The notes: generated by a model not told the origin, from the sequence alone. Positions 11,293 through 63,840 are shown, numbered from the stretch's first letter. The stretch is DNA of 64,000 nt from a virus (IMGVR_UViG_3300018012_000099), one strand, 5' to 3'. Program-made: numbers and translations.

Positions 11293-12093
11293 ATGTCTCT
11301 AAAACTTTTACAACCAGGCATTCAGCCTTTGGGTCAATTTGATGGTCTCGACTCTGACGTATTAACGTTGAAGGGTGGAGAAGTTGTTTCTTTTGCTTCT
11401 ACCCAAACCTCTGGTCAACCAGGTGTTACTACTGCGAGTTTGGATAAAGCGGCTTATGATTCATTCGACGGATACGTCAATGGTGGCAGCAACGTCTTTT
11501 ATCGTCCAGTGGTAACTAGACTGTGGAATGGTACTAACCTTCCTGCTGACGGTTATACTGCTGTAACAGCTAGTGCTCCAGTGGGCGCTGCAACCGGTCG
11601 TCCTTTGATGCTCGCTGACGATGGTATTACTGGTTACGGTACTCTCTTCGGTACTGTAGTTGGTGGTACTGTTGGTCAAGTTTCCTACGGTCCAAACAGC
11701 GTTGTTGCTTCTGCTAACTTGCTCGGACCTCACACCGCTACCGGTTCTGGTAAAGTAACTTGCTGGGATAAGCCAGGTCTCTACGCCGTCTCCTTGGACG
11801 CTGTCGATACTACCGCTTCTACTGGTTTAGTTCCAACTAACGTTACAACTGCTACCGTCGGCGTTGCCCTTGGATTCACTTCCTTGGGACTCTTGACTCC
11901 AAGCGGTTCTGCTCAAGACATTACTCACGGTCTAGTGAGCGTGGGTCACTTCGTTGAGTTCAACACCAACGGTTCTTTGGTTACTACTCCTAACTTCCTA
12001 GTTGCCGCTCTCAATAGCCCATCTGGTAACGTTAGCTCGCTTGGTCCAAGATCCTTCGCCTTTGCTACTATTTACTTTGCTCCAAAGAGCTAA
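11293..12093 (+). CDS. Capsid decoration / minor capsid protein
   Basis: Directly upstream of the MCP, highly biased codons, Gly/Thr/Val-rich beta protein with the GSGKVTCW motif. Confidence 0.65.
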   Translation: MSLKLLQPGIQPLGQFDGLDSDVLTLKGGEVVSFASTQTSGQPGVTTASLDKAAYDSFDGYVNGGSNVFYRPVVTRLWNGTNLPADGYTAVTASAPVGAATGRPLMLADDGITGYGTLFGTVVGGTVGQVSYGPNSVVASANLLGPHTATGSGKVTCWDKPGLYAVSLDAVDTTASTGLVPTNVTTATVGVALGFTSLGLLTPSGSAQDITHGLVSVGHFVEFNTNGSLVTTPNFLVAALNSPSGNVSSLGPRSFAFATIYFAPKS

Positions 12094-12121
12094 TCTGACT
12101 AGTCAGTTTAGTTGAAATCTT

Positions 12122-12160
12122 AAAACAACCAGCTCATTCGAGCTGGTTGTTTTGTTTTTT
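12122..12160 (+). terminator. Intrinsic terminator
   Basis: Perfect 14-bp stem aaaacaaccagctc / gagctggttgtttt with attc loop, then a T tract. Confidence 0.85.
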
Positions 12161-12184
12161 ATGCATTTAAAATTCAAAATATGG

Positions 12185-13396: not shown

Positions 13397-14236
13397 ATGA
13401 TTTCTGTAGAATTATATGAAGAATGTAAAAAATTATATTTAGGCGGTCATTCAATATCTAAAATTTGTTTGGAAAAACATTTGGATAGGCACAATTTGGG
13501 GCGTCGTTTTAAAAAAGATGGAATAAATGTTGGATTAGGTTGCTCAAATGCTCGAACATATAATCTAAATGAGCATTATTTTGACCATATTGATTCTGAA
13601 GAAAAAGCATATATGTTAGGATTCATATATGCGGATGGTAATAATCTATTTCAAACAAATAGAATTGCGATACAACTATCGATTGTAGATAAGGAGATAC
13701 TTCAAAAATTTTCTCAAATTATGTTCGGACAAGAGAATTTAAAATATCGCAAGAATAAAAATAATAAAGGAATTGAATTTGAATATGTGTCTTTAAGTAT
13801 GTATAGCAAACATATGAGCCAGCATCTTGCTACCTTGGGCGTGGTAGAAGCCAAATCCCATAAAATTGTCTTTCCTGACTGGCTTGATAAGTCTTTGTAT
13901 CGTCATTTTATCCGAGGACTAATCGATGGGGATGGTTGGATTTATCTGCCCAATGATAATCGAGATAGTCCTAATGTTGGACTAATTTGCACTCGCAAGT
14001 TAAATGATTTTCTAAAAGACTATTTTGAGAAAGAATTGAGGCTCAAATCTTATTTAGTCAAGGCATATAAACAGGATTTCGAAGTTATGTGTGAAATTCG
14101 TGTTAAGAACTATCACCAATGCAAAATATTTTTGGACTGGCTGTACAAGAGCGCCACTATCTCTTTGCAGAGGAAGTATGAATTATATCAGGAATTTCTC
14201 AACCGATACGATAATTTGAGAGATCAAAACAAGTAA
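13397..14236 (+). mobile_element. Free-standing LAGLIDADG homing endonuclease, paralog of 3656-4495
   Basis: AYMLGFIYADG and FIRGLIDGDG motifs; same length (279 aa) and layout as 3656-4495. Confidence 0.9.
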
Positions 14237-16176: not shown

Positions 16177-16178
16177 TT

Positions 16179-18229: not shown

Positions 18230-18943
18230 ATGAGTAGTGAAAGTAATTTTGCTTATGCTCTTAAATACAATACTCATTTTATTGTAAGAAATATTACAGG
18301 TAGTTCTGTAAACTCACCTTATCAAAAAACTATTTTTATTTTTAATTATCCCATTAATTATGGAGATACTAGAGATATTTTGGCTATCCCTGGAATAGAA
18401 GAAACAAATATTCGTGCTTCGCTTCTCAAAGGCGTATTACGTCACAAGTTATTATGTGGAGATATTCAATTAGTTTCCAGCAATATTGATTTAATTCAGT
18501 TTAGCGATAAACAACGTACTTTTCTTCAAGGTTTTGGATTTGGTAAAGGTATTGCTGTGGGATATAATGAATTAGATGGATATGTACAAAGTCTTTTTGG
18601 TGGCGGGGGTAGTGGAGGAATTACACCACAACAGCATGAAACACTTAGGCAACTTATTCATTTCATATCGGATGGTCCGGGTGATGGATTTGCTACAGGC
18701 GCCGTTAGAATTATCAGTCCAGCAGGGAGCTCATTCCCTACCTCAATAATATGGTATTTAGATGGTACGCTAACTACTAAATTAGTAGAAAGATTAAATG
18801 TATGGGACAGTAATGGTATGCCGTCCACTATTACTTGGAATATGTACGATTTAGATGGTATTACTATTATTCATACCATAATAGATACGATTACATACGT
18901 CAACAATATTTTTGAAACAACAAGAGTTAGGACGATCATATGA
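18230..18943 (+). CDS. Putative virion appendage protein with shared N-terminal anchor domain
   Basis: IFNYPINYGDTRDILAIPGIEETNIRASLLKG matches IFNYPIFPGQTRDLLAIPEISEADIRHSLIKG of 14956. Confidence 0.6.
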   Translation: MSSESNFAYALKYNTHFIVRNITGSSVNSPYQKTIFIFNYPINYGDTRDILAIPGIEETNIRASLLKGVLRHKLLCGDIQLVSSNIDLIQFSDKQRTFLQGFGFGKGIAVGYNELDGYVQSLFGGGGSGGITPQQHETLRQLIHFISDGPGDGFATGAVRIISPAGSSFPTSIIWYLDGTLTTKLVERLNVWDSNGMPSTITWNMYDLDGITIIHTIIDTITYVNNIFETTRVRTII

Positions 18944-19590: not shown

Positions 19591-21339
19591 ATGTCAAACG
19601 AATCACCCGCAGCCATTTTATTTGACGAATTAGGTAATCCGGTTGGGGTTATGTTCGATGGATATGCGTATCGATTACAAGTAGAAGCTAAATTAGCCTC
19701 TAATGTAGATAATTTTTTATCGTCAGATCGATCTATTTTTGGGAGCGGTGTAATAGCAGATAGACTTTCGCAAGTATCTGCCAGTTTTGTAGGACAGCTA
19801 ACAGATACATTTAATAATAATATTGGTCAAATTACTTCTGGTAGCGGCTCAATTAATATTTCTAACAGTGTACTACAAGTTTCATCTGGTACTGATAATA
19901 CATCTACTGTTCAAGTATTTACCAATAGCACTACAAAATATTATCCAGGCAGAGAAATTTATGTGCAATTTACCGCAGGGTTTACCATTCCAACCGATGT
20001 TAATAGTGAACAACAAGCTGGTTTATATGATGGGTACAATGGATTCTTTATTGGTTATCATGGGACAATATTTGGACTCACGATTCGTAATCTTTCAATG
20101 GATTCTTTTGTTCCTCTATCTTCTTGTAATGGAGATTTGTTGGATGGTAATATCAACAGTAAGTTTACTCGAGATAATGTACCAGAGGTTCTTAATTTTA
20201 CCTTTTCCAATGTTTATCGCATTAGATTTGGGTGGCTAGGCAGCGCCCCCATATTATTTCAGATAATGGCACCAGATGGTCAATGGGTAACATTCCACAC
20301 CATACGACAACCAAATACAAGTTCTATGCCAGGTATTGCGGATCCAAATTTGCCAATTACTTTTGAAATTATAAAGAATAGTTCCGATACCAATAATATT
20401 CAAATAACTACCAGTTCTTGGGACGCTGGTATAGTCGATAGCTCTCAGAGTCCTTTTAGGATTGTTCCAACATTTTCTTTATTAAACTCTACTAGCGAAT
20501 TATTAGATGGCTATGCTTCGTTTATCGGAATTTCAGAAGATGTTTCCACTTATGTTTCTATAGATATTACCGTATTATCCGATCAAATTAGTGATGTTAA
20601 TGGATTATTATTAGAATGGTCTCAAGATGGTATTATTTTTGCTTATCCTGAAAAGTTTACCATTTTACCTGGTCTGGGAGCCTTTTATTCTTTTGCACCA
20701 AGAGCTAAATATTTTAGATTAACATATACAAACGGTCCGGTAAATCAAACACAATTTTCTTTAACAACTGTTTATTATCCGGTTAACCGATCTATTTACG
20801 TACAAAATTTAAATACTGATATTGCTGCACAAAGAGCTACCGATGTAGTTAGATCTGTTTTGGCCGCTCAGAAAACAGGTGGTATTAACAGTGATTATAC
20901 TAATTTACAGGCAACTGATGATGGTATTCTAAAAGTTATCTCTGAAATTACAGATAGTGTTAATGGTCCGGTGGCTGTTAAATCTCCGTTTACTGCCGCC
21001 ATAGCGAGTGATCCGGCTTTGGTGGTTGCTATTTCACCTAATAATTCATTTACTGTTACTACAACTAAACCGGCAACCAGCGTCACCTCAAGTGTTTCTG
21101 GTTCTACCTCCAATTCTAATTTTCTACCTTCTAATGGAACTAGGTTAGGTGCTACGATTTACAATGATTCGTCAGCTTTGCTGTACATAAAATTAGGTGC
21201 CGTGGCAAGTGTCACTGATTATACTATTAAACTTTTTCCATTAAGTTATTATGAAGTTCCATATGGCTATACTGGACAAATAGATGGCATTTGGTCAAAT
21301 GCAACCGGATTTGTTAGAATTAGTGAATTAACATCTTAA
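19591..21339 (+). CDS. Modular fibre/appendage protein
   Basis: Ser/Thr/Asn-rich beta-sandwich modules. The C-terminal ~90 aa are paralogous to the end of 21397-22101; an internal RAKYFR module is paralogous to part of 22542-24674. Confidence 0.65.
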   Translation: MSNESPAAILFDELGNPVGVMFDGYAYRLQVEAKLASNVDNFLSSDRSIFGSGVIADRLSQVSASFVGQLTDTFNNNIGQITSGSGSINISNSVLQVSSGTDNTSTVQVFTNSTTKYYPGREIYVQFTAGFTIPTDVNSEQQAGLYDGYNGFFIGYHGTIFGLTIRNLSMDSFVPLSSCNGDLLDGNINSKFTRDNVPEVLNFTFSNVYRIRFGWLGSAPILFQIMAPDGQWVTFHTIRQPNTSSMPGIADPNLPITFEIIKNSSDTNNIQITTSSWDAGIVDSSQSPFRIVPTFSLLNSTSELLDGYASFIGISEDVSTYVSIDITVLSDQISDVNGLLLEWSQDGIIFAYPEKFTILPGLGAFYSFAPRAKYFRLTYTNGPVNQTQFSLTTVYYPVNRSIYVQNLNTDIAAQRATDVVRSVLAAQKTGGINSDYTNLQATDDGILKVISEITDSVNGPVAVKSPFTAAIASDPALVVAISPNNSFTVTTTKPATSVTSSVSGSTSNSNFLPSNGTRLGATIYNDSSALLYIKLGAVASVTDYTIKLFPLSYYEVPYGYTGQIDGIWSNATGFVRISELTS

Positions 21340-21358: not shown

Positions 21359-21396
21359 CTGGTAAGTAATACCATTTGAATTATAATGGAGCCTTC

Positions 21397-22101
21397 ATGT
21401 CTAGTCAATCGCCAGCATCAGTTTTGTATAGTTCAGATGGTTATGAATTAGCCTCGATACCTGGCGCCATTATTCCAACTGGCACTCGTGCTATTTTAGT
21501 TGATGGTACAGATGGTACTCACGCACGTACTTTGTTAACTGATGCGCTTGGACGGCTTCAAGTAGTGGGGGCTGGTACCGCGGGCAGTCAGAGTGGCGGT
21601 GTTATTACTATTCAAGGCGATCCATCTGGTACCCCTGTTCCCGTTTCGGGCACGGTCGCAGTTAGTTCTGTTGGCGGTACTGTTACGGTAGCTGGTACTG
21701 TCACTTCGAATCAGGGCGCACCTAATACTCTAACCAATGCTTGGCCAGTTGAAATTACAGATGGCACTAATGTTTTAGGAACCTCCTCTCATCCAGTTAA
21801 TATTACGGGGTCCGTCACTACCAGCAAATCTTCTACTGGCACTATTACTAGTGTATCTGGTTCTGTTACTAGCATCACATTATTAGCTTCAAATGCTAAT
21901 AGAATTTCTGCGACTATTTTTAATGATGCCCCGTCTGGTAACATATTATACATAGCGCTTGCAGCTAGTTCAAGTACTGCGGCTTATACCGTTAAACTGT
22001 GGCCTGGCTCTTACTGGGAATTACCGGTGGATTATACCGGCACTATTTCTGGAATTTGGACTGCAGCCACCGGAAACGCATTAGTGACTGAACTGACTTA
22101 A
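21397..22101 (+). CDS. Modular fibre/appendage protein
   Basis: ATG at 21397 after GGAG. Contains the NAWPVEITDGTNVLGTSSHP module and the shared C-terminal ATIFND...YTGTISGIW domain. Confidence 0.65.
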   Translation: MSSQSPASVLYSSDGYELASIPGAIIPTGTRAILVDGTDGTHARTLLTDALGRLQVVGAGTAGSQSGGVITIQGDPSGTPVPVSGTVAVSSVGGTVTVAGTVTSNQGAPNTLTNAWPVEITDGTNVLGTSSHPVNITGSVTTSKSSTGTITSVSGSVTSITLLASNANRISATIFNDAPSGNILYIALAASSSTAAYTVKLWPGSYWELPVDYTGTISGIWTAATGNALVTELT

Positions 22102-26042: not shown

Positions 26043-26402
26043 ATGACAACCAATGATTTCCCGGGAATTGGCTATACTAACTATGGACGTAATTTTAACT
26101 TTTTTCAAAAAGTATCGGTTACTGCCACCAGTTTTGGATCTAATAGTGTTGATGGATACCAGCCTGATGCTTTGATCACGTTTCCAACACAAACTGTAAC
26201 TTTTCAATTGGAGCCTGCCGCCGAATCTGACGGATATGGTCTCATTCAATATTCTTTTAATGGAATAACCATCGATGGCGACATGAGTTACGGAAATTAT
26301 AGTGCTAATTTAACTTTTGAAAATCGAGTTATTTCTAAAATTTGGTTTAAACTCGTTTCTGGTAGCGCTACCGTTAGAATAGAGGCTTGGGGCATTCGTT
26401 GA
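26043..26402 (+). CDS. Small beta-sandwich structural protein
   Basis: 119 aa, AGGAG RBS, two DGY motifs. Confidence 0.6.
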   Translation: MTTNDFPGIGYTNYGRNFNFFQKVSVTATSFGSNSVDGYQPDALITFPTQTVTFQLEPAAESDGYGLIQYSFNGITIDGDMSYGNYSANLTFENRVISKIWFKLVSGSATVRIEAWGIR

Positions 26403-27277: not shown

Positions 27278-28357
27278 ATGATAATGACAATTTCATTAGA
27301 CAGTTTAACTTCTGATCCAGTTGGAACAGAAAATGGTTTAGTTACAAGAAATATTCCATCAGGAACACAAGATGTTAGTGGTTCTGAAGTTATTATCGAT
27401 GGTTATGTCCAAACCAATCCTAATGTTATTGTTTCTAATTTTCCATCGGAACAGCACGTACTTGTTGATGGTTATGTGGAAACTAATCCGGTGGTTATTC
27501 AGGGTACCAATCCTTGGAATGTTAGTATTAGTAATTTTCCATCCGATCAACATGTGATAATAGATGGCTATGTACAAACTAATCCAAATGTTAATGTCAC
27601 TAATTTTCCAGCAACACAAGCGGTCACTCAAAGTACTAGTCCGTGGGTAGTTTCATCTTCTGGCAATTTTAATAACTCTTCTGTTTCTTCTATTGCATCG
27701 GGCGCCCCCACTTCAGCTACTTTTGTTGGTGGTGAGGTTCAAGCTGTACAATCAGGTTTAACATCTGGAGATTTGTATCCACTCTCTTTAACCACTACTG
27801 GATTATTGCGTGTCGACGGATCAAATATTACACAGCCTGTCAGCGGTACCGTAACTGTCAATCAAGGCTCAGCGGCTGCCTTATCAGGCGCGTGGCCAGT
27901 AGAGATAACTGATGGATATGGTAATATTCTTGGAACTTCTTCCAATCCTATTATAACTACATCTAAAGCTGTTAATCGTACGACATTAACTTTTGTAGGT
28001 TCTCATTTTAATGGTGTAAGTAATACAGAAACTATGATAACTTTTACCCCATATTCTAATTTTGTGGCGGGAACTGCCGGAACTTCTTTTGCTGTTGACA
28101 CTGGTAAAACATTAAGATTACAAAGTATAATTTTAAGTGGTTATAATGGCAACGGATTTTTTAATTTAAGAATTTCTAGTAGCGGATCTGTTACCACAAG
28201 TACGCCAATTATTATAAGTGTGTATTTAACAGGCACTGTTAATGTTCCAATTCCAGAAGGACTAGAATTGACTGGATCGGTACAATTTGGAGTATCTCAA
28301 GTGCAAACTCCTACTGGCGCTGTATTTAGTATGACTATTACTGGATACGAATATTAA
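27278..28357 (+). CDS. Modular fibre/appendage protein with tandem DGY repeats
   Basis: Three (V/I)IDGYV(Q/E)TNP...NFP repeats, the AWPVEITDG module, and a C-terminal domain shared with 22542. Confidence 0.7.
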   Translation: MIMTISLDSLTSDPVGTENGLVTRNIPSGTQDVSGSEVIIDGYVQTNPNVIVSNFPSEQHVLVDGYVETNPVVIQGTNPWNVSISNFPSDQHVIIDGYVQTNPNVNVTNFPATQAVTQSTSPWVVSSSGNFNNSSVSSIASGAPTSATFVGGEVQAVQSGLTSGDLYPLSLTTTGLLRVDGSNITQPVSGTVTVNQGSAAALSGAWPVEITDGYGNILGTSSNPIITTSKAVNRTTLTFVGSHFNGVSNTETMITFTPYSNFVAGTAGTSFAVDTGKTLRLQSIILSGYNGNGFFNLRISSSGSVTTSTPIIISVYLTGTVNVPIPEGLELTGSVQFGVSQVQTPTGAVFSMTITGYEY

Positions 28358-30525: not shown

Positions 30526-30882
30526 ATGACCGAAATCTTACAATACATGCCGGGTATGCAAGTCACTATCTTTTTGGAAACATTAGATATCAATGGACAA
30601 CGTACCAACGATGGATATGATGGATACACCGTACCCGTGGTGACTCGTATCATTTTGCCGGGTTATACCTTAGCGATGGGATATCCACAACCACTTATTC
30701 AATTGGATGTAGGTCTATATACTTTTCAGTTTCAATTGCCTAGTGGAGCCGCGGCAGTCGGCAGTTATTTAGTAGATGTAGCCTATATGAATACGTTGGG
30801 GTTTGTGAATTATCAAACTTATCAAATTATTGTGACTGCGCCGTTTGGTCTCTACGGTATAACTGTGCCGAGTGTATCATGA
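30526..30882 (+). CDS. Small Ig-like neck-associated protein
   Basis: Resembles the N-terminal domain of 30879-31775 (GLYTFQF vs GQYSYIF, then G.Y...W/V); tandem DGYDGY. Confidence 0.55.
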   Translation: MTEILQYMPGMQVTIFLETLDINGQRTNDGYDGYTVPVVTRIILPGYTLAMGYPQPLIQLDVGLYTFQFQLPSGAAAVGSYLVDVAYMNTLGFVNYQTYQIIVTAPFGLYGITVPSVS

Positions 30883-31775
30883 TTAAGGGTAGAGGCGAAT
30901 TAATTGACGTGACAGATCAGGTCAATTTAATTGTACAATTTAAAGATGCATCAGGTAACCCCATCAACACGGATTCCTTTCCACAAATTTCTATTGTTCA
31001 ACCCAGTGGCTTGGTGCTATTAGCGCCCACTTCTATGGGAGTAGCTCAAGTGGGGACGGGTCAATATTCCTATATCTTTACCGTTCCTATCAACGGTCCT
31101 TATGGTGTCTTCAATGATGTTTGGACGGGTTTTATCAATGGTTCTCGTGTGCAAGCCACTTTGAGTTTTGTGGTGACTCACACCCAGATTCCAGCCATCA
31201 ATACGGATGGTTACATTCATTTGGGTGATGATCCAGGATTTCGTTATTCCCAATGTGCTATTCAAAATATCAACAAATTGATTAAATCACTGAAGGCTAG
31301 ACTTAACAGCGCCGGTAAAGCTAAATCGGTAGATGGTTATGGCAATACTATCTATGTGGATTGTGATATCTTTTCAATTGATATGTTGGTGACTTTTATT
31401 GCTACAGCTTTGTGGGATTTTAATCAGGTGCCGTATTTTACTTTCTTTACTTTTGATGAAGATGATTTCGTTAATCAGTTCGGGGAGATTTTGGTGGAGG
31501 GAGCTACTTTGTATGCGTTGGCTTCCAAGGCTTTGATCGAGAGGGGAAGAGAGTTTCAGATTACGGATAATGGATTGAATTTTAATCCGCCGACGGTAAG
31601 TGAGTTGATGGAGACACAGTATTCGACACTACTAACGGCATATAATGATAAGCTACGATATATAAAGAACTCACTTCGTCCGGCACCAAGAGGTTTAGGA
31701 GTATTTAGTATGAATAGTGCTATAAACCCGGCATTTGCAAGATTACGCCACCTTAGGGCGAGACGTCTGATCTAA
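30879..31775 (+). CDS. Head-tail connector (neck) protein
   Basis: Ig-like N-terminus plus helical C-terminus (GATLYALASKALIE...QYSTLL); position between head and tail genes. Confidence 0.6.
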   Translation: MIKGRGELIDVTDQVNLIVQFKDASGNPINTDSFPQISIVQPSGLVLLAPTSMGVAQVGTGQYSYIFTVPINGPYGVFNDVWTGFINGSRVQATLSFVVTHTQIPAINTDGYIHLGDDPGFRYSQCAIQNINKLIKSLKARLNSAGKAKSVDGYGNTIYVDCDIFSIDMLVTFIATALWDFNQVPYFTFFTFDEDDFVNQFGEILVEGATLYALASKALIERGREFQITDNGLNFNPPTVSELMETQYSTLLTAYNDKLRYIKNSLRPAPRGLGVFSMNSAINPAFARLRHLRARRLI

Positions 31776-42500: not shown

Positions 42501-45382
42501 GTGGTGGAGAGGCATTTATCAATGGAAAAATTATACAACTAAATCCACAATCTGTTGATTTGCCGGTAGTATTAGAAGCTGTCAATGGCACGACCACTTC
42601 TACAGTTAATGTTATTACTTGGTTTATTTGTGTGAATGATAAATCCGAAATAGAGTTGGTTGCCTCCACCGATTTTGATCCTTTCGGACCATTCGTTGGA
42701 CAGTATGCTGCATTTTCGCTCAATCATTTGAGAATATTTTATGTGTTAAACCCCAACGATCCTCTACCTACTCCGTATCAGGTTAGGGGTACTTATTTTG
42801 GTGGATTGGTTGTTAATCAAAAGGATGTAACCCCTATTGCGGTGGCAGTTGCTACTGTAACCAACCCAGGTTCAGGATTTGCTGTTACCAATGTAGTGCT
42901 GAACGACGCTAAGAGATTCGTTACCAATGGATATGGTGGACTTATTGATCCGTTAACGTTAGGTACTTTTGCCAGCTTTAGAAATTTTGACTCATTACTT
43001 AATTGGCTTTATCAACTAAATAATTTATTCTCTGCTTCGGTGGGTGAAAGTAATCCAATTTCCAACAGGGTTATTGTTAAAGGGCATGTTAGTATTGTGG
43101 CCCCTATACCTCTAGGATACATCTTCGGAGAAATACATTTCGAGGGAGATAACGGAGTCTTTGATGTTTTCATTCCAACAGGATTTGAATTGCAGAGCAA
43201 CGTTCATTTTGACAATATTATTTTTAACTATCTATATGATCCTGTAGTTTATAATTCTGTGTATGGAGATGTTACCGACGGTTATTTTAGTAGTACTAAT
43301 TTAATCAATACTGGTAGAGGGCTTATTCATGTAGGTACTGGTACCGTACCGGGTAGTAATGCTTTCAACAGAAATATTTCTATCACTAACTGCCATTTTA
43401 TTTGGGTACCACTCATCGGTGGTTTGGGCGGCGTACCACCATTCGTAGCGGTTCCACCTATTACTTCTACTGGTATTAACAGATATTCTTTCATCAACAT
43501 AGAATTAGCACAACCGCCTGTGGGTGCCCCAACCATTTTGCAAAGTTTAGATATTTCCAATAATACTTTTATAGAAAATACTCTAAATTCATTTGCACCC
43601 GCCAACCAAGAAACACAACGTGCGGCTATTTCTATAGTATCTTTAGCAAATTCTATTACGGTGCCCGCCTCTGGTGTCAAACTAATTAATGCTACTATTA
43701 GAAATAATGTATGTGATAAAGATCAAATGATTGCTATAGTGCCAGCTTCTACTGCCACCAGTAATACTGTCAACGCAGCTATAAATGCTACTGGTTGTAT
43801 AATTGAGGCTAATACTTGTGGAGCTATTTCAATTTTTACGCAATATGATATCGCACTTGATGTCAATTTTACAGCTAATTTTATTAGTTTCACGTTGGAT
43901 AAAAATCTGGGTTTAATTATTAAGGACAATACCTGCAAATATATTACTTCTACGGATGCCCGAGGAATAGATTTAGCTAATAATGTAACAACCATTGCCC
44001 CCAATACGGGACCTCTTATTATTAGTGATAATACATGTTGCTGGATTAAACCAGTTCTTAATATTAATTCTGCTGCCCCAGTTGCTGCCCCCTGTGTTAT
44101 TAAAAATAATATCCTTAACGGTTATGATGTTAATTTCCGCAGATCATATTTAATTGGTAGTAACAGTATCACTAATACTGCTATCGAGGTTATTAATATT
44201 GCAAGTAGCACTGCTTTGGAAAGTATAATTATAGATGGCAACTGGATTAGTGCAGGATTATATGCTACGCCACCAACCATATCACAATTTGCTTATGATT
44301 TAGGTATTGTTTCACAACATGACGCCAATATTTGTAACAATATCATTAGTAATCTTCAAACTGTTCTTCTAACTGGTAATCCTCCTATCGGTATTACAGT
44401 GGCTGGAACCAATTCTTGTAATATTCATCACAACAAATTGTTCAGATTAGCCACTATCTGGCAAGCGTATGTTAATGCGGGTGGTGGTCATCACTTAATT
44501 ACTGATAACTTTTTTGATCAAACTACTGTGGACGGTACTCATACTGAACAGCAGGTGATAGGCAGCCTAAATCAACATAGCATTTCCAGAAATGTTAATC
44601 AGATAGTTTACGAAGCCATGTCGCTAGTAGATTATAAGTACTACTATATTGCTACTGGTGCAGGGGCAGCGTCTAATACCGGTCCGGCTCCAACTACAAC
44701 TTTAATTTTCGTTGATCCGGTTAATAATACATTTTTATCTAGATATTCATCGGATGCGGTCACTACTTCTTCTTCAGCATATACTCAATTCGCCGAATTG
44801 GCAGGCTTCCCTAACGCTAGCCCTCCCACTACTGCGGAAAGAGATTTAAGTTTCACTATCCCATTGAGTGATCAACTGCCAAATGGGGTGAGAATCCTTA
44901 GTGTAGAAATGGGCGTATGGCTACAGCTTAATGGAGCTACATTAGATACTACCCAACCTGCTAATAATGCTATCAGTTTAAATTTGGTTTCCCACGCTGA
45001 TAATTTGTTTACTGGTGTTTCTGGAACTGCACGTATTACAGACGTGAGAAATAATATTTTTCCGGCTTCTACTGGTGGTACTGTGGGCGCTGACTTTTCT
45101 GTTCCTACTATATTTTTGTCCGATCCTTTGGTATTTACACTATTGGTGGGATCTGTTGATTCTTCTGGTCCAGGATATAAAGTAGTTACTATAGGTGATT
45201 TAACAGCTAGCACACAATTTTTAACTATAAATACTATTCCGGGAGTCAATTTTACCACTGGCAATAATCATAGAATAAATTTACAAATAGATATGAACTT
45301 TTTGAGGTTAAATGGTACCGGTTCAGGCGGTAATGGTGTTTTCTGGTACTTTTCGCCAATTTTAGTAACATATAGTTGGTAA
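39572..45382 (+). CDS. Large (1936 aa) tail fibre / tailspike-like structural protein
   Basis: N-terminal NFP...INALRDAVFNIE fibre-head motif; C-terminal third has IxNNxC / IxxNxI parallel beta-helix repeats; seven DGY motifs. Confidence 0.7.
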   Translation: MSNFPQNFDDDTTLPVVNDNLTEIGGDAINALRDAVFNIEMNIGLGAAGTTPSIAARLGLLINPDGTPNASAITSLGLVTLPITQDQIIDNAQIPESKLRLDYRTQDLFNYIRDLSRDVNLALGWISVSGVKLEPHLIGAIYRHDLSQIDVAENSSQFLNNVFRTQRDNANSYTLINDMNSELLAHQWADGSPFGILRNIITNDGSIYPSYYAHVASGIFLNTSRFNTIPQTAQDLQSFAQFIDEASIFLLGTRIQNLYANGISRTSTSSSLTTDGYGQPIIPPTPATAFLRFPSGNNSAPVDDIDHGDDIIQFFPAAADISSNSFDEKFALVQVGDIIRINYGTVEVQFVILEKKYTHGTYAIRIAGKNLAYTTTAVARIDRPLFNTNKYGVLALAAANSSFNSSNIPTSLIVGAPRGAQTLGIGFNPDQFDSQHYLLYLALYPTGSPQDGYTILPAIDVTGNQGATPGFYTLDSIVQSTNLAFRQPGYNYRFIAFSYQGEFGIMLADSYNNASFSIISGVVLPNGTGYDPTGTGINFPHNVIDVFSTNHDPLGFGALGSNVASPPFTSSFASVAASQFVTRILVPLRRNNYYVDGVEKEKLNLQIGQALDQYGDGYWVASIDGYQSVSGHVQTTYLVPLDLSTSDLKIGKTLVVQSLGSGSLVDFGRFVISGINFNCSTSPATAITVYDAVHATGTFPAPTLASSPDGYGKPVALYFNSDSVAFDQESATDITIPSPNGPFKRFFEIYVDENGNTFTHERARLNNSGSVITVNPTTGSSVPLYNSSSSLSFINIYDISPKLRGYNFGITKINLRLFSYDATTGLFDGYLCQFDGTTVTHAGPIIVGQKGLISRFYDATNVDYIDFIFNPGDTISSFTTPQSVDIQLFPSLSLDGQIMQLGTCQFNTVNYQVSYLNDKRQFGNISEEQLSTSAIDFIQSSDRELCDNGIIRGFDALDANGNPTIQINIAGGTINFSGGEAFINGKIIQLNPQSVDLPVVLEAVNGTTTSTVNVITWFICVNDKSEIELVASTDFDPFGPFVGQYAAFSLNHLRIFYVLNPNDPLPTPYQVRGTYFGGLVVNQKDVTPIAVAVATVTNPGSGFAVTNVVLNDAKRFVTNGYGGLIDPLTLGTFASFRNFDSLLNWLYQLNNLFSASVGESNPISNRVIVKGHVSIVAPIPLGYIFGEIHFEGDNGVFDVFIPTGFELQSNVHFDNIIFNYLYDPVVYNSVYGDVTDGYFSSTNLINTGRGLIHVGTGTVPGSNAFNRNISITNCHFIWVPLIGGLGGVPPFVAVPPITSTGINRYSFINIELAQPPVGAPTILQSLDISNNTFIENTLNSFAPANQETQRAAISIVSLANSITVPASGVKLINATIRNNVCDKDQMIAIVPASTATSNTVNAAINATGCIIEANTCGAISIFTQYDIALDVNFTANFISFTLDKNLGLIIKDNTCKYITSTDARGIDLANNVTTIAPNTGPLIISDNTCCWIKPVLNINSAAPVAAPCVIKNNILNGYDVNFRRSYLIGSNSITNTAIEVINIASSTALESIIIDGNWISAGLYATPPTISQFAYDLGIVSQHDANICNNIISNLQTVLLTGNPPIGITVAGTNSCNIHHNKLFRLATIWQAYVNAGGGHHLITDNFFDQTTVDGTHTEQQVIGSLNQHSISRNVNQIVYEAMSLVDYKYYYIATGAGAASNTGPAPTTTLIFVDPVNNTFLSRYSSDAVTTSSSAYTQFAELAGFPNASPPTTAERDLSFTIPLSDQLPNGVRILSVEMGVWLQLNGATLDTTQPANNAISLNLVSHADNLFTGVSGTARITDVRNNIFPASTGGTVGADFSVPTIFLSDPLVFTLLVGSVDSSGPGYKVVTIGDLTASTQFLTINTIPGVNFTTGNNHRINLQIDMNFLRLNGTGSGGNGVFWYFSPILVTYSW

Positions 45383-45383: not shown

Positions 45384-46208
45384 ATGTCATCTAATAATTT
45401 TTTTAAGAGCGATCTTTATGGTTTGTATAACATCGTACAAGCCTCTATGCTAGTGTATCCAAAAGAAATGGTTATTAATACATTAAGAAATTTTTTTAAT
45501 CGAGATAGTTATTACCATTATTCCAAAGATCAGTGGGGATTTGCCAACACTACTGATCATACCGATCTGCCACCTGGTGCCGATTTGCCATTTGGTCCAG
45601 GCTCTCATCCTGAACTTAACCCTAATCCAATTCTGTCCACTCGTTTGTTTATTGGTGAAAATTATCGTTATGATAGCATTTACTATCCTGCTTTGTTAGT
45701 TAAGAGCGGCGGATCTCGCTATGTACCAATTTCTATCAATAGGGAGCAGGGTACCGTCTACTTCAGTGAGATGTTGTTTGAAGACGGCTACGGTCACGAA
45801 ACGTTGGTTCGCAGACCACAATCTTTTGTGACTGCGGGAGCGTGGGAAGGATCCATCATCGTGGATGTTTATTCTAGAAGTTTACGTGCTAGGGATGATT
45901 TATGTGAATTAGTAGGTATGTGTTTTGCAGAGGTGAATTTTGATACTTTGCATGAAGTGGGGGTAATCGTTAAACCACCGGTTATTGGGGCACCCAGTGA
46001 AGGTGATGATCGAAATGATAAGCTATTTAGGCAAAGTATCACATTAGATATAAGAACCGAATGGCGAAGGGAAATTCCCATTGGAAACTTAATAGATGCT
46101 ATTCTCTTCACTGTTAATTTCGGTGGCTTCACGCCCAATAGCCCAAATGCGGCTAATCTGACCATTAATACAGAAGTGAGTATAATTGATATGCTACTAA
46201 ATGGGTAA
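45384..46208 (+). CDS. Tail terminator / tail completion protein
   Basis: Directly upstream of the sheath; YPALLV...IIVDVYSRSLRARDDLCELV pattern. Confidence 0.6.
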   Translation: MSSNNFFKSDLYGLYNIVQASMLVYPKEMVINTLRNFFNRDSYYHYSKDQWGFANTTDHTDLPPGADLPFGPGSHPELNPNPILSTRLFIGENYRYDSIYYPALLVKSGGSRYVPISINREQGTVYFSEMLFEDGYGHETLVRRPQSFVTAGAWEGSIIVDVYSRSLRARDDLCELVGMCFAEVNFDTLHEVGVIVKPPVIGAPSEGDDRNDKLFRQSITLDIRTEWRREIPIGNLIDAILFTVNFGGFTPNSPNAANLTINTEVSIIDMLLNG

Positions 46209-46349: not shown

Positions 46350-49187
46350 ATGGCTGACATACCCGGAGCAACTAATGCATTACCAGGACCGTTTACGCTC
46401 GTCCAGACATCGTCTGCGGCTGTATCTATTCCGGGCGGTTCTCGTGTAACTGCCATGATCGGTCAAGGTCAGACTAATGAGACCGTTGTGGCTCAAGCTC
46501 AAGGTGGCGGAGTTGATGGTTTGAACGCAACCTATACCTCTACTAGCGGTGCAGACGGTAGACATTTTACACTGTTACAAGCTCCAATCATCTCTAACAG
46601 AACTACTCTATTTAAAAACGGTATCCCCCTCGTCGGTATGGAGTCTACTATCACTGCAACTACCACTTTCAGTGATGCTTTTGATTATCTTATCGATGTC
46701 ACTACGGGTCATATCCTATTACAATCTGCCCACTTAGTAGATCAAGGTGGCGCTTTCTATGTTCCTCTTTCTACTAACGTTGGTTTGGGTACTATCAATG
46801 CTCTGACTCTAGTGGATGTTAATGCTCCACCAGAAACTTGGACCGTGCGCTGTATATCCGTTCAAAGAAATTCTATGAATCAACCAATCGGTGGTACTGC
46901 TACATTTATTGCCGTAGGTTCTGTTTCCGGTGCGCAGGTAGATGCTAATGGTAATCCAATCGTTTGGATTGCTGACGGCTATGTTGTTAGCAATGGTATT
47001 TTGAGCTTCAGCATCATTGAAACTCAAGTACTAAGCGTATATGTTTCTCCATTCGTTCCAGGTGACGCTTTCACTATCGAAGTGGCTAGCGGCGTGTTGA
47101 TTAAAAATGATAGTTTAACTGCTACCTATATTCCAGTAGCTAATATTAATAATCCTATTTTAACTCAAGGTCAAAATCAGGTTATTGCTCAATTTGGCAA
47201 TCCGAGCTTAGATAATAGTTTGTCTTTGGGTGGTCAACTGTTCTACGCCAACGGCGCTTCTAGTCTTATCTGTTTACAGGCCGCACCACCGCTACCTCGA
47301 CGAACTTCTTTCATTCTCTCTCATTCGGTTAATTCTGCCTCCACTAATGATGATGATTTCGTTTTCCCGTTACCTGTGGGTGTGGTTCCGGCGTTCAATG
47401 ACGATATCCACTTTTTCATTACTAACAATACTAATCAAGTAGAAACTCAGATTCTACCTAACAAACAGACATATTATACTTTAGGTACAGCGGGTAATCC
47501 AACCTTAGATCAATTTATCAAGGATAACGTACCCGCTCCTGGTGGATTTTCCTACTTCTATACCGTTATTCAAAGTTTCGAAACCTTGGTAACTGGTTTT
47601 GATGGTTATATTGGTAGAACTGGACCACAAACTAATCAGGGAGTTTTCTCGTCTTCTGTTACTTTTGACTCTACCTACATTGGTAAAGAAATTAGAATCA
47701 TTGACGCGCAGAATGTAGCTAACATTAATGCCTCAGCTACTGGCGGAAATGATAATCCAACTTTCACCGTCACTGGTGTTTTTGATGGTCAATTGTACTT
47801 CATGGGCAGCGTACCATTCCCAGATTTAACCAACGTAGCCGGTACCGAAGCTTTTGAGCTGATCGATCCATCTACTGATACAGTGGTTCCAGGCAGCCAA
47901 GCAACCCAAGGAACTGTTGTAGAAAATGTAGGCACTGGAACTGGTACTATTACCGATGCTGTGGTTAATTTTAACAGCATATCTGCTTTCGTAGCAAATC
48001 CAACTCACTATAAAGTACAAATCAACGGAGATATTAATAACCAGGGTTTGTATGATATTACTGGTTATAGTTCTGTAGGCAATGGTGTCATTTCTATTGC
48101 CAAGGCTTTGGTTAACGAACATAATGTACGTTATGAAATTATTGATCCTACTTTGGTGAGTAACTATATCGTTATTAATCATAACGTGGTACCAAATGGT
48201 TTCGGTTTGAGAGTTACTCTCGTTGATAATCGTGATGCTACTTTCTATGATGCTGGGTGGCTTAATGCTCTTGCTGCTTTAGAAACAATAGAATGCGATA
48301 TCTTAGTTCCATTGCCAAATCAAACTATCAGCGTTATCTTCCAGAACTGTGTCAATCACTGCATCGCTATGAGCAACATCGTCAACAAGAAAGAACGTGT
48401 GTTGTTCATCGGAGCTATCAATGGTTTGACCCCAGCTAACGTAACTGGACAACAACTAGCTGCCGTTGAAGACCTAGGACCACTAGAGGGTATTCCGGGT
48501 AGCAACCCAAGCTTGATTCTACAAGCTAACCCACAAGACTTGGCAAACTACTCAGTATCTGCCGCTTACGGATACACTTTCCGTGTTGTCTACTTCTATC
48601 CTGACCAAATTGTGGTCGCTGCTGGAGGTAACAACATTTTGGTGGATGGATTCTATATCGCTGCTGCCGCCGCGGGTTACGAATCTGCTGACGTTATTCT
48701 CCAAAATCCTCTAACTAACAAAACCATTTCTGGGTTCACTATCTTGAATAACAAGAAGTTCTCTACCCTGGTACTAGAACAATTAGCTGCTGCCGGTATT
48801 ACCACCTTGCAGCCAGTTGCCGGAGGTGGGAATGTGGTCTGGGGTATCACCACCAGTCAGTCTGGATTCCCAGAAGAACAAGAAATTTCCATCGTTTTTA
48901 TCAGAGACCGCGTAGCGAAGGTTTTGAGAGCCGGATTCCAAGGTTTCATTGGCACTCCACAGGATGTCAATACTGCCGCTGTACTCAACACCGAAGCAGT
49001 AGTTCTGTTGAACTCTCTAGTAGGTCAAGGTTTGATTACCGCATACAAGGACCTGGCAGTATCACAAGATACCGTAGACCCACGTCAATGGAACATCTCG
49101 GTGAGCGTCAGCCCAGCTTATCCAATTAATTGGATCTTTATCAAGGTTAACATTACCAACCTTAATCTAGGTGGTTCTGGCGGTTAA
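46350..49187 (+). CDS. Contractile tail sheath protein with large insertion domains
   Basis: N-terminal LPGPFTLVQT and C-terminal EISIVFIRDRVAK...DPRQWNISVSVSPAYPINWIFI sheath signatures; followed by the tube gene. Confidence 0.88.
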   Translation: MADIPGATNALPGPFTLVQTSSAAVSIPGGSRVTAMIGQGQTNETVVAQAQGGGVDGLNATYTSTSGADGRHFTLLQAPIISNRTTLFKNGIPLVGMESTITATTTFSDAFDYLIDVTTGHILLQSAHLVDQGGAFYVPLSTNVGLGTINALTLVDVNAPPETWTVRCISVQRNSMNQPIGGTATFIAVGSVSGAQVDANGNPIVWIADGYVVSNGILSFSIIETQVLSVYVSPFVPGDAFTIEVASGVLIKNDSLTATYIPVANINNPILTQGQNQVIAQFGNPSLDNSLSLGGQLFYANGASSLICLQAAPPLPRRTSFILSHSVNSASTNDDDFVFPLPVGVVPAFNDDIHFFITNNTNQVETQILPNKQTYYTLGTAGNPTLDQFIKDNVPAPGGFSYFYTVIQSFETLVTGFDGYIGRTGPQTNQGVFSSSVTFDSTYIGKEIRIIDAQNVANINASATGGNDNPTFTVTGVFDGQLYFMGSVPFPDLTNVAGTEAFELIDPSTDTVVPGSQATQGTVVENVGTGTGTITDAVVNFNSISAFVANPTHYKVQINGDINNQGLYDITGYSSVGNGVISIAKALVNEHNVRYEIIDPTLVSNYIVINHNVVPNGFGLRVTLVDNRDATFYDAGWLNALAALETIECDILVPLPNQTISVIFQNCVNHCIAMSNIVNKKERVLFIGAINGLTPANVTGQQLAAVEDLGPLEGIPGSNPSLILQANPQDLANYSVSAAYGYTFRVVYFYPDQIVVAAGGNNILVDGFYIAAAAAGYESADVILQNPLTNKTISGFTILNNKKFSTLVLEQLAAAGITTLQPVAGGGNVVWGITTSQSGFPEEQEISIVFIRDRVAKVLRAGFQGFIGTPQDVNTAAVLNTEAVVLLNSLVGQGLITAYKDLAVSQDTVDPRQWNISVSVSPAYPINWIFIKVNITNLNLGGSGG

Positions 49188-49885: not shown

Positions 49886-49981
49886 TCTATATAATTAGAT
49901 CAATATACTCCCTAATATTGACTAACGATGTCTCCTATTGTGTTATATACAGTAGGAGATATTGCTTTTGTGGAGAAAATA

Positions 49982-51045: not shown

Positions 51046-51056
51046 CGAGATACTAA

Positions 51057-53303: not shown

Positions 53304-53315
53304 TAGAGAGTAGTT

Positions 53316-54215: not shown

Positions 54216-54256
54216 AAGTACATTTGAAATGTATTGGATAAGGATAGGAAAAAGTA

Positions 54257-59263: not shown

Positions 59264-59265
59264 AT

Positions 59266-61308: not shown

Positions 61309-61661
61309 AGAAATTAAATACGGTAATTTATCACAAGCTACTTTTACAATCTCACGAAGCAAAAGCTCAAGGTATGGTTAAACTAGCCGACGGCATCATT
61401 AATGCTTTGGGCCCCATGACTGAAGATGAAAAGGTTGAGTATAATTATGCACAATTGCGTGACGAAGTGTATGATGGAATGTGGAAAATAGCTACACACG
61501 TTATTAAGTACTACGATGTTAAAAGTGCTGATGCTGGTAAGATCCATGAACGATTGGAAGCATTAGCTGACAGATTTTTGGGAGAGTTGGAACAATCATT
61601 AGATGTAGAAGGGGTGGTTGCTGGCCCATTAGAGAGTCTACTTCCTGGTGAATCTAAATAA
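61305..61661 (+). CDS. Hypothetical helical protein
   Basis: 118-aa coupled ORF; N-terminus (LLQSHEAKAQGMVKLAD) resembles the shared head-protein helical module. Confidence 0.55.
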   Translation: MKKLNTVIYHKLLLQSHEAKAQGMVKLADGIINALGPMTEDEKVEYNYAQLRDEVYDGMWKIATHVIKYYDVKSADAGKIHERLEALADRFLGELEQSLDVEGVVAGPLESLLPGESK

Positions 61662-61680
61662 GCCGATATATAGATAGTTA

Positions 61681-63840
61681 ATGTCACCGTGTAGTCCTAC
61701 AGATGTCTCTTTTCCATCACCCACTGTTCCAAGTGGTCCTCCCATTCCGGGGGTAGGAATACCATTTGCTTTAAAACTTCCGAATATCTCACCATTTCCC
61801 CAAGGTTTCCCAGAAGATTTATTAGAGCTATTTGATAAATTACAGTTAGTTATACCTCCGGGCATATTAAAACCAACTTTATTTCCCAATTTTTCCAAAG
61901 ATGTGTTTGATGGCATATTGAGCATGTTAGATCAATTTATGCCATTCTTAACTCTATATAAATTCTTTTTGCCGGTGCTTAATCTCATCATTTGTATTAT
62001 CGAGGTTTTGTGCGCCCTGATGAACCCTTTTGCGTTGATTTCAGCTATCAATAGATTATTTAGTCAGTGCATTCCAGAATTCTTGAACCTATTTCCCATT
62101 TTTGCTTTGATTATTATGATAATTTCATTACTATTACTTTTGTTAGCCCTAATTGAATACATCATCGCCCAAATATTAAAACTTATTAATGACATTTTAC
62201 GTAATCTCAATGCCCTAATAAAATCATTCCAAGATGCTGACGCTAATGCTGTTTTAGCTATTGCTAACAAGTTAGGTGCTCTACTATGTGTGTTCCAAAA
62301 CCTTTTTGTTCTGCTCTCTATTTTCAATATCATTATTGAAATCATTAGAGATATGCTGAGATTAGCCTTCGCTATTCCTCCATGTGAGGGGTCCTCTAGT
62401 AGTGATATTAATAGTTGTTGTTCTCCACTAACTTGCCCAACTATTGTACAAGGAAATTATACTAGAACAACTGGTACTCTACAATATTTACCAGAAGTGG
62501 GTTTACAAACCAGTATTAATTCTTTTTTTGGACCCACTACTACTGATTTGAGACATGAAACATGGCAATTATATGATCCCTCTCAAACTCAATCACAAGC
62601 CTTTTCTAATATTTACAATGCTTCTGATATCACCAACACAACTAACAAGCCAGTATTTTTTCCTACAGATGCTAATTATACTGCTACTACTAATCCAAAT
62701 CAAGCAGCATATACAGTAAATTTAAGAGTATTTTATAATCCTATTAATTGGGGTCGTACCGGTATTGCGCGTTTCATTCGTTTTAATAATTGTATTATGT
62801 TAGCAGTTCCAACTCCTAATTTGGTTAATTATAATAATTTAAATATCACAGAAAATACTGGCGTTGTTTATCTGGCTGGAGGAGCGGGTTTTGAAGATGA
62901 TGACATAACTGTGCTGACTGGATTTTCTTCTGATGGTATTACCCCCGTTTCTAGTCAAGCTACACTTAATAATTTTCTTCATAGACCACAAACCGTTATT
63001 ATAGTGCCCACCTCTAATGTTTTACCGAATGATGGTTATACATTTTCTAATATTACCTATACTTTCCAACCTAATATGCAAGTTTTATTTAACAAGCAGT
63101 TAGTTACATTAGGGTGTGAACCCAGTGTAGCTCTTAATAGGGCTTTCGTTAATACTGTTATGTTTGGTAATGTGGGGACCCAAACTGTGGCTCTCAATAA
63201 TCTTATCAATAACATTAATGGTCAGGTGTTTCCAGATCCGAATGCCGCTCAACAATGTTTGACTGCTGCCCTTTCTGCTCTGAGAAGCAATCTTTCAGTA
63301 GAGGGTGTCGCAGCTTTTCAAGCTACCGCCACTACTTGTTTGAATAATTTAGCCAATGATACCAGCTCTGCGTTAACTAGTATGGTAGGTATTGGGTTTA
63401 ATGCTTGTCAAAGTACTTTATCACGTGAGCCTACTATCCAGTTTACCTCCGAAACTATTACGGTGACGGTTAATCTTAATGAGAATAATGGATTACCATT
63501 GACACAAGGTATGCCAATTAGTGTGGGTAATGAAATTGCGACTCATATTACTTCGCATATCACTTTTGGCAATATATCTAATTTTACTTATGACGGATAT
63601 CAAGCATTTACCGCTCAGATTTCTAGTCCAACACCGGGTAACGGTCAGATTATGGTAGCATTTGATAATCAAATTTTGTGTACCAACACCCTTTCGACGG
63701 ACCCAACTGTGCCACCAGTCCATACATTACAGACTTTAGACTATCAATTTGTTTATACTCCTTTGGGATCTGTGGGTGGTGATGGTCAGCCACGCAGAGA
63801 TGCGGGCGATGTTAGCAGAAGCGGTAAGGATAATATCTAA
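61681..63840 (+). CDS. Baseplate-region protein with long hydrophobic helices and a C-terminal Ig-like domain
   Basis: Pro-rich N-terminus, Leu/Ile-rich helices (about aa 90-230), a CC/C cluster and a beta-rich C-half. Confidence 0.6.
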   Translation: MSPCSPTDVSFPSPTVPSGPPIPGVGIPFALKLPNISPFPQGFPEDLLELFDKLQLVIPPGILKPTLFPNFSKDVFDGILSMLDQFMPFLTLYKFFLPVLNLIICIIEVLCALMNPFALISAINRLFSQCIPEFLNLFPIFALIIMIISLLLLLLALIEYIIAQILKLINDILRNLNALIKSFQDADANAVLAIANKLGALLCVFQNLFVLLSIFNIIIEIIRDMLRLAFAIPPCEGSSSSDINSCCSPLTCPTIVQGNYTRTTGTLQYLPEVGLQTSINSFFGPTTTDLRHETWQLYDPSQTQSQAFSNIYNASDITNTTNKPVFFPTDANYTATTNPNQAAYTVNLRVFYNPINWGRTGIARFIRFNNCIMLAVPTPNLVNYNNLNITENTGVVYLAGGAGFEDDDITVLTGFSSDGITPVSSQATLNNFLHRPQTVIIVPTSNVLPNDGYTFSNITYTFQPNMQVLFNKQLVTLGCEPSVALNRAFVNTVMFGNVGTQTVALNNLINNINGQVFPDPNAAQQCLTAALSALRSNLSVEGVAAFQATATTCLNNLANDTSSALTSMVGIGFNACQSTLSREPTIQFTSETITVTVNLNENNGLPLTQGMPISVGNEIATHITSHITFGNISNFTYDGYQAFTAQISSPTPGNGQIMVAFDNQILCTNTLSTDPTVPPVHTLQTLDYQFVYTPLGSVGGDGQPRRDAGDVSRSGKDNI

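Follow-up and report, generated by a model that had tools for sequence, protein, structure and literature searches.

Several protein glycosylation systems read a short acceptor motif, as in the case of Campylobacter PglB (D/E-X-N-X-S/T), of Bacteroidota (D-S/T-A/I/L/V/M/T) and of chlorovirus PBCV-1, whose capsid is N-glycosylated at Asn by virus-encoded soluble glycosyltransferases (GTs) at a non-canonical, virus-specific motif. In mycobacteriophages, glycans reportedly sit on capsid and tail-tube subunits, within Ser/Thr-rich C-terminal stretches. That phage virions can be glycosylated is described for mycobacteriophages (Freeman et al. 2023, as cited in PMC12582341), and O-glycans linked to Tyr occur on S-layer proteins of Paenibacillus and Thermoanaerobacter, with 6-deoxy sugars (rhamnose) being abundant (PMC2943079). 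Here, we report on the tripeptide Asp-Gly-Tyr (DGY) in a 64,000-nucleotide viral sequence (IMGVR_UViG_3300018012_000099; its entire length is referred to as the window), where it is strongly overrepresented in structural proteins. With a probability of roughly 0.35, DGY may be a Tyr-O-glycosylation sequon read by a soluble cassette of the phage's own.

If so, the system would resemble that of mycobacteriophages in having phage GT genes beside structural genes and a cytoplasmic modification that coats exposed virion proteins, but its acceptor would be a strict D-G-Y spread over many proteins, the major capsid protein (MCP) and tube being devoid of it, rather than capsid and tube subunits; its glycan, too, is a predicted one. 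With PBCV-1 it would share virus-encoded soluble GTs acting in the cytoplasm on a virus-specific acceptor motif, yet PBCV-1 is a eukaryotic virus modifying Asn on one capsid protein, whereas a phage would here modify Tyr on many virion proteins. Like the PglB and Bacteroidota sequons, DGY falls in the range of three to five residues, has an acidic residue at position −2, is scattered over surface proteins and is gained and lost in evolution; unlike DGY with its soluble GTs and candidate Tyr acceptor, those sequons are served by membrane oligosaccharyltransferases outside the cytoplasm and carry the glycan on Asn or Ser/Thr. S-layer glycosylation offers a Tyr acceptor on a bacterial surface array and 6-deoxy sugars, and the nearest cultured relative of the phages concerned infects Bacillus; in contrast to the present proposal, S-layer glycans are assembled on a lipid carrier before their transfer, beyond the membrane, to few Tyr per protein, for which no sequon is defined.

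Translating 54 non-overlapping open reading frames (ORFs) of the window, we counted 39 DGY in 14 of them, against 2.9 expected from the composition of each protein (~13-fold). This reproduces exactly, ORF by ORF, the hand count of the original prediction, which had been made from the sequence alone; only the start of the ORF there named 21397 shifts, to a TTG at position 21376. In 2000 within-protein shuffles, DGY occurred 3.0 times on average (standard deviation 1.7) and never more than 9 times, bearing out the proposed excess over shuffled proteins. DGY is the strongest tripeptide outlier of the window (z = 21, with the runner-up at 6.6) and stays at the top when the expectation is a Markov estimate from the observed DG and GY dipeptides (8.1; z = 10.9). 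Each residue stands out given the other two: DG is followed by Tyr 39 times (T 13, L 12, I 12), GY is preceded by Asp 39 times (next, T 7), and Gly separates D and Y 39 times (next residues, 4). Tyr follows 39 of 143 DG dipeptides across the window (27%) and 39 of 77 within the 14 DGY proteins (51%), close to the quarter and the half given earlier.

The window MCP (phrog_2522) retrieved 317 related matches in IMG/VR, on contigs of up to 480 kb; its closest cultured relative, at 54% identity, is that of the 497-kb Bacillus phage G. The best 80 of the 317 matches are 90–98% identical, vs. ~50–67% for sheath, hub and fiber proteins in the same genomes, an extreme conservation contrast within one virion. 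In the following, the clade denotes uncultured giant phages whose MCP is at least 77% identical to that of the window, with genomes of up to ~480 kb. These phages are very common in metagenomes, with MCP matches on more than 300 IMG/VR contigs and hundreds of homologs for each structural protein searched. Our main comparison genome, G001, is a complete relative of 480,838 bp that is syntenic with the window and shares a sheath of 67% identity.

Selection on DGY acts at the protein level. The 39 sites use twelve codon combinations, in which the shares of GAT/GAC, GGT/GGA/GGC and TAT/TAC match those of the whole gene set, and the DNA pattern GAYGGNTAY occurs 39 times in the coding frame as opposed to 6 times over all other frames and strands. 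Free codon choice and confinement to the reading frame indicate the protein, and neither DNA nor RNA, to be selected, ruling out a DNA-level motif. Both the identity and the order of the residues matter: in the window and the structural block of G001, DGY is 9–29-fold enriched, while the five other orders of D, G and Y reach 0–3-fold and the variants NGY, EGY, DGF, DGW, DGH, DAY, DSY and SGY ~0–2-fold. NGY, DGF and DGW in particular lie at 0.5–1.4-fold, unlike what would be expected of a generic type I′ beta-hairpin turn, so the enrichment outlasts a control for turn-like composition. Together with the Markov expectation, these near-equivalent tripeptides rule out a bias in composition or turns, and the strictness in order and residues argues for the carboxylate of Asp and the hydroxyl of Tyr being recognized, and against a general preference for turns or aromatics.

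DGY is also free-standing, i.e. neither a domain signature nor a composition effect. In-register flank similarity between DGY sites is no higher than between sites where DG precedes a residue other than Tyr, or between random sites. The exception is an internal repeat (h-h-DGYV-Q/E-TNP) that holds three DGY of the 27278 protein, the window's only DGY sites with similar flanks; with the remaining 36 flanks unrelated, a repeated domain is ruled out. At 234 non-redundant sites of the clade, the context follows only weak rules: a surplus of Val (43 vs. 18) and a deficit of Pro (2 vs. 12) right after Tyr, and an excess of acidic residues at position −3 and of Val at −4.

Zero DGY were counted in the ten ORFs of positions 1–11179, the MCP, the ORFs between the sheath and position 61661 (49214–61661), the tRNA nucleotidyltransferase, the 2H phosphoesterase and the five homing or HNH-type endonucleases of the window, in agreement with the absence claimed earlier for the 1–11179 proteins, MCP, enzymes and endonucleases. 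Tube, tape measure, hub and spike of the window are assigned by position and weak matches only. Among beta-rich virion proteins, a hub-like protein of 1668 aa (amino acids) with 9 DG and a G001 protein of 1755 aa with 18 DG have no DGY at all. In the whole G001 genome, we counted 80 DGY vs. 20.9 expected; the bins at 260–400 kb, which hold the structural genes, contain 62 vs. ~6.7 expected, with counts elsewhere in the genome equal to expectation or a little lower. Half of the G001 sites outside the structural block belong to two Kelch-repeat proteins (starts 98306 and 74784, with 6 and 2 DGY), which match Pfam Kelch models and have DGY once per repeat, as part of the repeat and separate from the virion pattern. 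The prediction that DGY saturates virion proteins only therefore holds for its concentration in structural proteins, and non-virion proteins are not equally enriched; the word "only" is slightly too strong, given the Kelch proteins.

Comparison with related phages reveals DGY enrichment to be a derived trait of one clade. All other clade loci fetched are 5–17-fold enriched, and DGY exceeds expectation in every locus whose MCP is at least 77% identical to that of the window. In contrast, 17 loci from the side of phage G (MCP 74–100% identical to that of phage G) contain 14 DGY vs. ~14.6 expected, and four loci of an intermediate lineage (MCP 57–61% identical to that of the window) contain 1 vs. 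4.3, which rules out a general trait of phage G-like phages. Outgroup genomes gave 28 observed vs. 18 expected for phage G (first 400 kb), 9 vs. 8.6 for G006 (whole, 205 kb) and 12 vs. 9.7 for G010 (first 180 kb). As separate observations, the sole local DGY excess in phage G (L114–L133, 316–347 kb) lies in very large paralogs sharing a DGYWYVRG module, and at 0–60 kb of G006 (L225–L235), a genome of the intermediate lineage, [ST]-G-[ST] is ~3-fold enriched in large structural proteins, partly as TGTxISGT-type fiber repeats.

Alignments indicate DGY to have been gained repeatedly and independently at many positions of homologous proteins, as first proposed from a few homologous domains. Between window proteins and their G001 orthologs, which are 54% identical overall, 14 of 28 alignable sites are DGY in G001; the non-shared window sites differ there by single changes (DGT, DAY, NGQ, DEF), and further sites exist in G001 alone. 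In the family of the 34772 protein (115 homologs, 63–82% identical), DGY appears in 20 alignment columns, more than any other tripeptide (DGF 4, NGY 4, EGY 2). Three of these sites are near fixed and the rest sporadic, including SGF/DGY and DQY/DGY polymorphisms that require two-step changes; a quick tree yields 4–17 state changes per sporadic column, a range biased upward by tree error and recombination. An alignment of 61 homologs over the first 1200 residues of the 39572 protein places DGY in 30 columns, vs. 4 for DGF, 4 for NGY and 0 for EGY. Here, sites 275 and 616 are invariant (61/61 homologs), and several lineage-specific insertions bear DGY.

Structural models place DGY in varied contexts. 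An AlphaFold model of the 34772 protein (mean pLDDT 76.6, ~90 over residues 1–350) consists of tandem FN3-like domains in its N-terminal part; Foldseek with this model also returns neck proteins of phage 812, and a PDB sequence search with this FN3-rich family gave no match. DGY20 lies in the hairpin turn between strands 1 and 2, DGY249 in a loop, DGY277 right after a strand, DGY318 in a four-residue hairpin loop and DGY359 in a low-confidence stretch. The model of residues 1–1200 of the 39572 protein (mean pLDDT 70; no match in a fold search) has sites 451 and 616 at turn-to-strand junctions, 709 in a long loop and 275 at the edge of the disordered N-terminal region. Overall, several of the 11 modeled sites are in a hairpin turn or at a strand start, two in a long loop, two within a strand and two in low-confidence regions. 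Tail sheaths have an inner layer made up of their conserved terminal domains, with inserted domains pointing to the outside. Across 119 sheath homologs, DGY occupies 11 columns, all within reference residues 59–616 (site 418 in 118 of the 119), whereas in residues 617–945, which include the conserved sheath domain, 0 of 127 DG are followed by Tyr. Given the known sheath layering, confinement of DGY to the non-core two thirds of the protein supports exposure of the sheath sites. In the modeled FN3-like domains, the sites fall within turns between strands or beside them.

An intrinsic structural motif that needs no reader is an unlikely explanation, albeit the one that survives best among the alternatives. 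D-G would form a tight turn or bulge and Tyr would pack or hydrogen-bond, stabilizing exposed beta-hairpins as the clade's preferred design of surface loops. The many sites at strand-turn-strand junctions are in line with this, as are several sites that are invariant across 55–85% identity and a sequence context typical of strand starts, with Val overrepresented and Pro underrepresented behind Tyr and hydrophobic residues common ahead of Asp. A type I′ beta-turn, which DGY resembles by D-G between strands and an aromatic or beta-branched neighbor, favors N-G at least as much as D-G and accepts Phe or Trp; here, however, D-G-Y alone is enriched and its near-equivalents NGY, DGF and DGW are not, and the predicted contexts are mixed, spanning hairpin turns, long loops and in-strand positions. 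Moreover, at conserved sites that some homologs have lost, the residue in place of Tyr is H, T, N, Q, L, I or V and very rarely Phe, and DGY columns also show Q, T, V, A and K instead of Gly. This pattern is unlike that of a buried aromatic or of an obligatory glycine with positive phi angle. DG-rich but DGY-free beta-rich proteins of the same virion, and outgroups that have the same kinds of proteins and no enrichment, likewise argue against a structural role.

Slightly less convincing, and in our estimate also improbable, is a docking or ligand-binding motif, whose many weak sites would contact a decoration or adaptor protein of the phage, a metal ion, or a carbohydrate of the host envelope or matrix, the latter via hydrogen bonds from Asp and stacking of Tyr. 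The limitation of DGY to outer virion proteins, and to FN3-like and other beta domains of often adhesive function, fits such a role; binding loops typically contain Tyr, Gly and Asp, and the residue specificity would suit a defined contact. Yet a tripeptide within unrelated flanks and differing local structures makes a poor stand-alone binding site, selection of a compositional type would also have raised YGD and GDY, which are both at ~1-fold, and no partner was identified.

A trans-acting factor that reads DGY would explain the strictness in residues and order, why flanks and local structure do not matter, the repeated gains within variable loops and insertions and the restriction to the outer virion, and Tyr O-glycosylation is the leading candidate because a soluble GT cassette adjoins the structural genes. 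Right after the last of its large DGY-rich structural genes (1341 aa, 7 DGY), and on the same strand, G001 has genes for a 233-aa protein, a GT4/GT1-type GT (GT4 in the following), a GT2, an Fpg/Nei glycosylase, a 330-aa protein with a transmembrane segment, another GT2 and a dehydratase, after which come a TubZ-like tubulin and a GH25 lysin. The cassette also directly follows the last large structural gene in G004 and ~35 clade loci; the window stops short of this position, such that the cassette is known from relatives. Its order is kept in those clade loci that were inspected. Wherever the sequence extends far enough upstream of TubZ (~35 loci), both GT4 and the dehydratase occur, and no natural cassette-loss variant turned up; the glycosylase gene is variably present, and seven loci that keep their DGY enrichment lack one or both GT2s. 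A conserved GT4 alongside variable GT2s is the pattern expected of a priming enzyme and variable extension.

The cassette GTs have no transmembrane segment, indicating soluble enzymes; their lack of such helices gives no sign of a membrane oligosaccharyltransferase, although no search for oligosaccharyltransferase families was made. The sole membrane protein of the cassette is the unannotated 330-aa protein, with a single N-terminal helix. The dehydratase is similar to dTDP-glucose 4,6-dehydratase (354.8 bits, with the equivalog cut-off at 365). In the PDB, the GTs gave only generic matches, and the best NCBIfam match of one GT2, mycofactocin glycosyltransferase, was discarded as it lies far below cut-off and reflects the generic GT2 core. 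BLAST found no homolog of the GT2s, the 233-aa or the 330-aa protein in phage G, G006 or 180 kb of G010; GT4 gave one match of 24% identity, in G006, and the dehydratase none in phage G and G006 and one weak, partial match in G010 (27% over 122 aa). G008 and G009, two complete phage G-like genomes, showed no GT2 or GT1 match above family cut-offs. The glycosyltransferases envisaged by the original prediction are thus found, as a conserved soluble cassette beside the structural genes of relatives. Their covariation with the enrichment is supported in that the three outgroups lacking it gave no BLAST homolog of the cassette GT2s, but not for GT clusters at large, since G006 and G010 possess others; "any GT cluster predicts DGY" is thereby ruled out.

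In the Tyr-O-glycosylation reading, the conserved GT4 would add, in the cytoplasm, the first sugar to the Tyr hydroxyl of D-G-Y, with the Asp two residues upstream as the recognition element. The variable GT2s would extend the glycan, which would include a 6-deoxy-hexose. The outcome would be a glycan coat over decoration, neck, sheath-surface, baseplate and fiber proteins, and the clade would keep and re-create the motif on outward parts of the virion as a mark for this trans-acting reader. The attachment to Tyr, the action of the cassette on proteins and the identity of the priming enzyme are inferred. A bolder version, in which DGY is the first defined Tyr-O-glycosylation sequon, primed by GT4, with interchangeable GT2s building strain-specific glycans into a variable sugar coat, is tentative and less probable than the general proposal.

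Several points weigh against Tyr O-glycosylation by this cassette. We know of no Tyr-O-glycosylation sequon anywhere, and a literature search retrieved neither such a sequon nor any account of DGY in phages. Cassette and motif are linked by one single phylogenetic co-occurrence, and G006 (at 132–137 kb) and G010 carry unrelated GT clusters without DGY enrichment. Loci with neither GT2 keep the enrichment, which is compatible with the proposal only if GT4 is the priming enzyme. As a cytoplasmic enzyme would read every DGY, depletion in non-virion proteins would be expected; in G001 it is weak (8 non-Kelch sites vs. ~13 expected). Sites 624 and 828 of the 39572 protein are modeled inside beta strands, near the strand start. 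Lastly, the cassette includes a conserved membrane-anchored protein and lies near a lysin gene; its target could be the cell envelope or DNA instead. A complex prediction of the 233-aa protein, GT4 and a GT2 with the first FN3-like domain scored 0.02 and counts neither way.

Some other chemistry at DGY, be it phosphorylation, nucleotidylation, sulfation or oxidation of Tyr to dihydroxyphenylalanine by a host or phage enzyme, or an isomerization-prone Asp-Gly bond (succinimide or isoaspartate, possibly leading to cross-links) with Tyr as helper, is more doubtful still, even when these variants are taken jointly. All three residues are strictly needed, as such reactions might demand, Asp-Gly is the classic succinimide-forming dipeptide (cf. 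PMC12447389), and host enzymes are conceivable. Two clade genomes, however, contain no match to Pkinase or to PCMT (isoaspartyl methyltransferase), with sulfotransferase, Fic and tyrosinase families left out of the search, and what was found beside the structural genes is a GT cassette and no other candidate enzyme. Finally, chance, a DNA-level signal or a repeated-domain artefact is very hard to believe, for although a single protein contributes 3 of the 39 sites through its internal repeats and Kelch repeats add 8 sites in G001, shuffles gave at most 9, codons are free and the pattern in-frame only, 36 flanks are unrelated and every clade locus is enriched.

A strict tripeptide marking the exterior of a whole virion and repeatedly re-invented at new positions is undescribed for any phage in the literature searched. 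Should Tyr O-glycosylation at DGY be true, it would provide the first sequence rule for this modification, a portable enzyme-tag pair for glyco-engineering and fresh insight into the shielding or targeting of particles by giant phages from the environment; with GT4 as its reader, a globally abundant clade of ~0.5-Mb phages would have a variable sugar coat. Even as a structural or docking motif, DGY would be a clade-specific signature and a cheap in silico marker of exposed proteins and loops on uncultured virions.

The DGY-bearing ORFs and other features are listed in Table 1. By position, the 61681 ORF would belong to the baseplate region, downstream of the large hub-like and spike-like ORFs. 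Purely by position, too, the 11293 ORF appears to sit where phage G has its capsid decoration gene gp26, to which it has no sequence match.

Table 1 Features of the window (IMGVR_UViG_3300018012_000099) and the tubulin gene of G001; residue numbers refer to the encoded protein
Feature	Coordinates	Strand	DGY (residues)	Remarks
266-aa ORF	11293..12093	+	2 (59, 86)	directly upstream of MCP; 59 kept in G001
237-aa ORF	18230..18943	+	1 (116)	kept in G001
582-aa virion structural protein	19591..21339	+	3 (23, 147, 306)	phrog_1645
241-aa Gly-rich ORF	21376..22101	+	1 (21)	DGT at that place in G001 paralog
119-aa ORF	26043..26402	+	2 (37, 63)	both in stretches that the G001 ortholog does not have
359-aa ORF	27278..28357	+	4 (41, 64, 96, 212)	
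118-aa ORF	30526..30882	+	2 (29, 32)	tandem DGYDGY
298-aa conserved ORF	30879..31775	+	2 (110, 152)	85% identical to G001; 110 kept in G001, 152 is DAY there
662-aa protein	34772..36760	+	5 (20, 249, 277, 318, 359)	N-terminal tandem FN3-like domains
632-aa fiber-like protein	36868..38766	+	5 (154, 176, 413, 475, 485)	highly variable
1936-aa beta-rich structural protein	39572..45382	+	7 (275, 451, 616, 624, 709, 828, 1236)	
274-aa ORF	45384..46208	+	1 (134)	upstream of sheath gene; DEF in G001
945-aa tail sheath	46350..49187	+	2 (209, 418)	sheath PHROGs match residues 759–937
719-aa ORF	61681..63840	+	2 (451, 638)	both kept in G001
MCP	12269–13282		0	phrog_2522
tRNA nucleotidyltransferase	16179–17471	-	0	CCA-adding type
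2H phosphoesterase	33003–33554	-	0	2′-5′ RNA ligase superfamily
Endonuclease	3656–4495	-	0	interspersed in structural block
Endonuclease	13397–14236	+	0	interspersed in structural block
Endonuclease	18940–19581	+	0	interspersed in structural block
Endonuclease	26456–27262	+	0	interspersed in structural block
Endonuclease	29010–29642	-	0	interspersed in structural block
TubZ/PhuZ-like tubulin of G001	L104:13719–15077			directly after the GT cassette

Two further observations concern the 34772 protein. In the family consensus, its C-terminal third has a cluster of four Cys (CSC ... CPFC) and three HxH motifs close to the C-terminus, reminiscent of metal-binding fiber tips, with a model confidence below that of the N-terminal half. 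Five homologs (P0014, P0015, P0024, P0089 and P0102) are ~1070–1100 aa long and contain intein/Hint domains (PF14890, PF13403; in one case along with LAGLIDADG), so that some members of the clade have this structural gene invaded by inteins.

The genome neighborhoods provide additional side observations. The tubulin after the cassette is conserved in the clade (66–100% identity in 52 loci). A second glycan-related cluster of G001 (L092, ~85.7–88.0 kb) comprises a CsaB-like polysaccharide pyruvyl transferase beside a GT1 enzyme, with the two Kelch-propeller genes (L091/L092) ~10 kb to either side; in Gram-positive bacteria, pyruvylation of the CsaB type is associated with the anchoring of S-layers, which makes the CsaB-like gene a weak hint to the host. 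Homing-type endonuclease genes are unusually dense within the structural block of the window, most of them without a counterpart at the same place in G001, and their types include LAGLIDADG, an endonuclease PHROG, GIY-YIG-like, HNH/EndoVII and GIY-YIG with NUMOD3. The tRNA nucleotidyltransferase gene is embedded among head genes on the opposite strand. Likewise on the opposite strand within the structural block, the 2H phosphoesterase has a sub-threshold match to the anti-CBASS protein Acb1 and is a candidate cyclic-nucleotide-degrading counter-defense gene.

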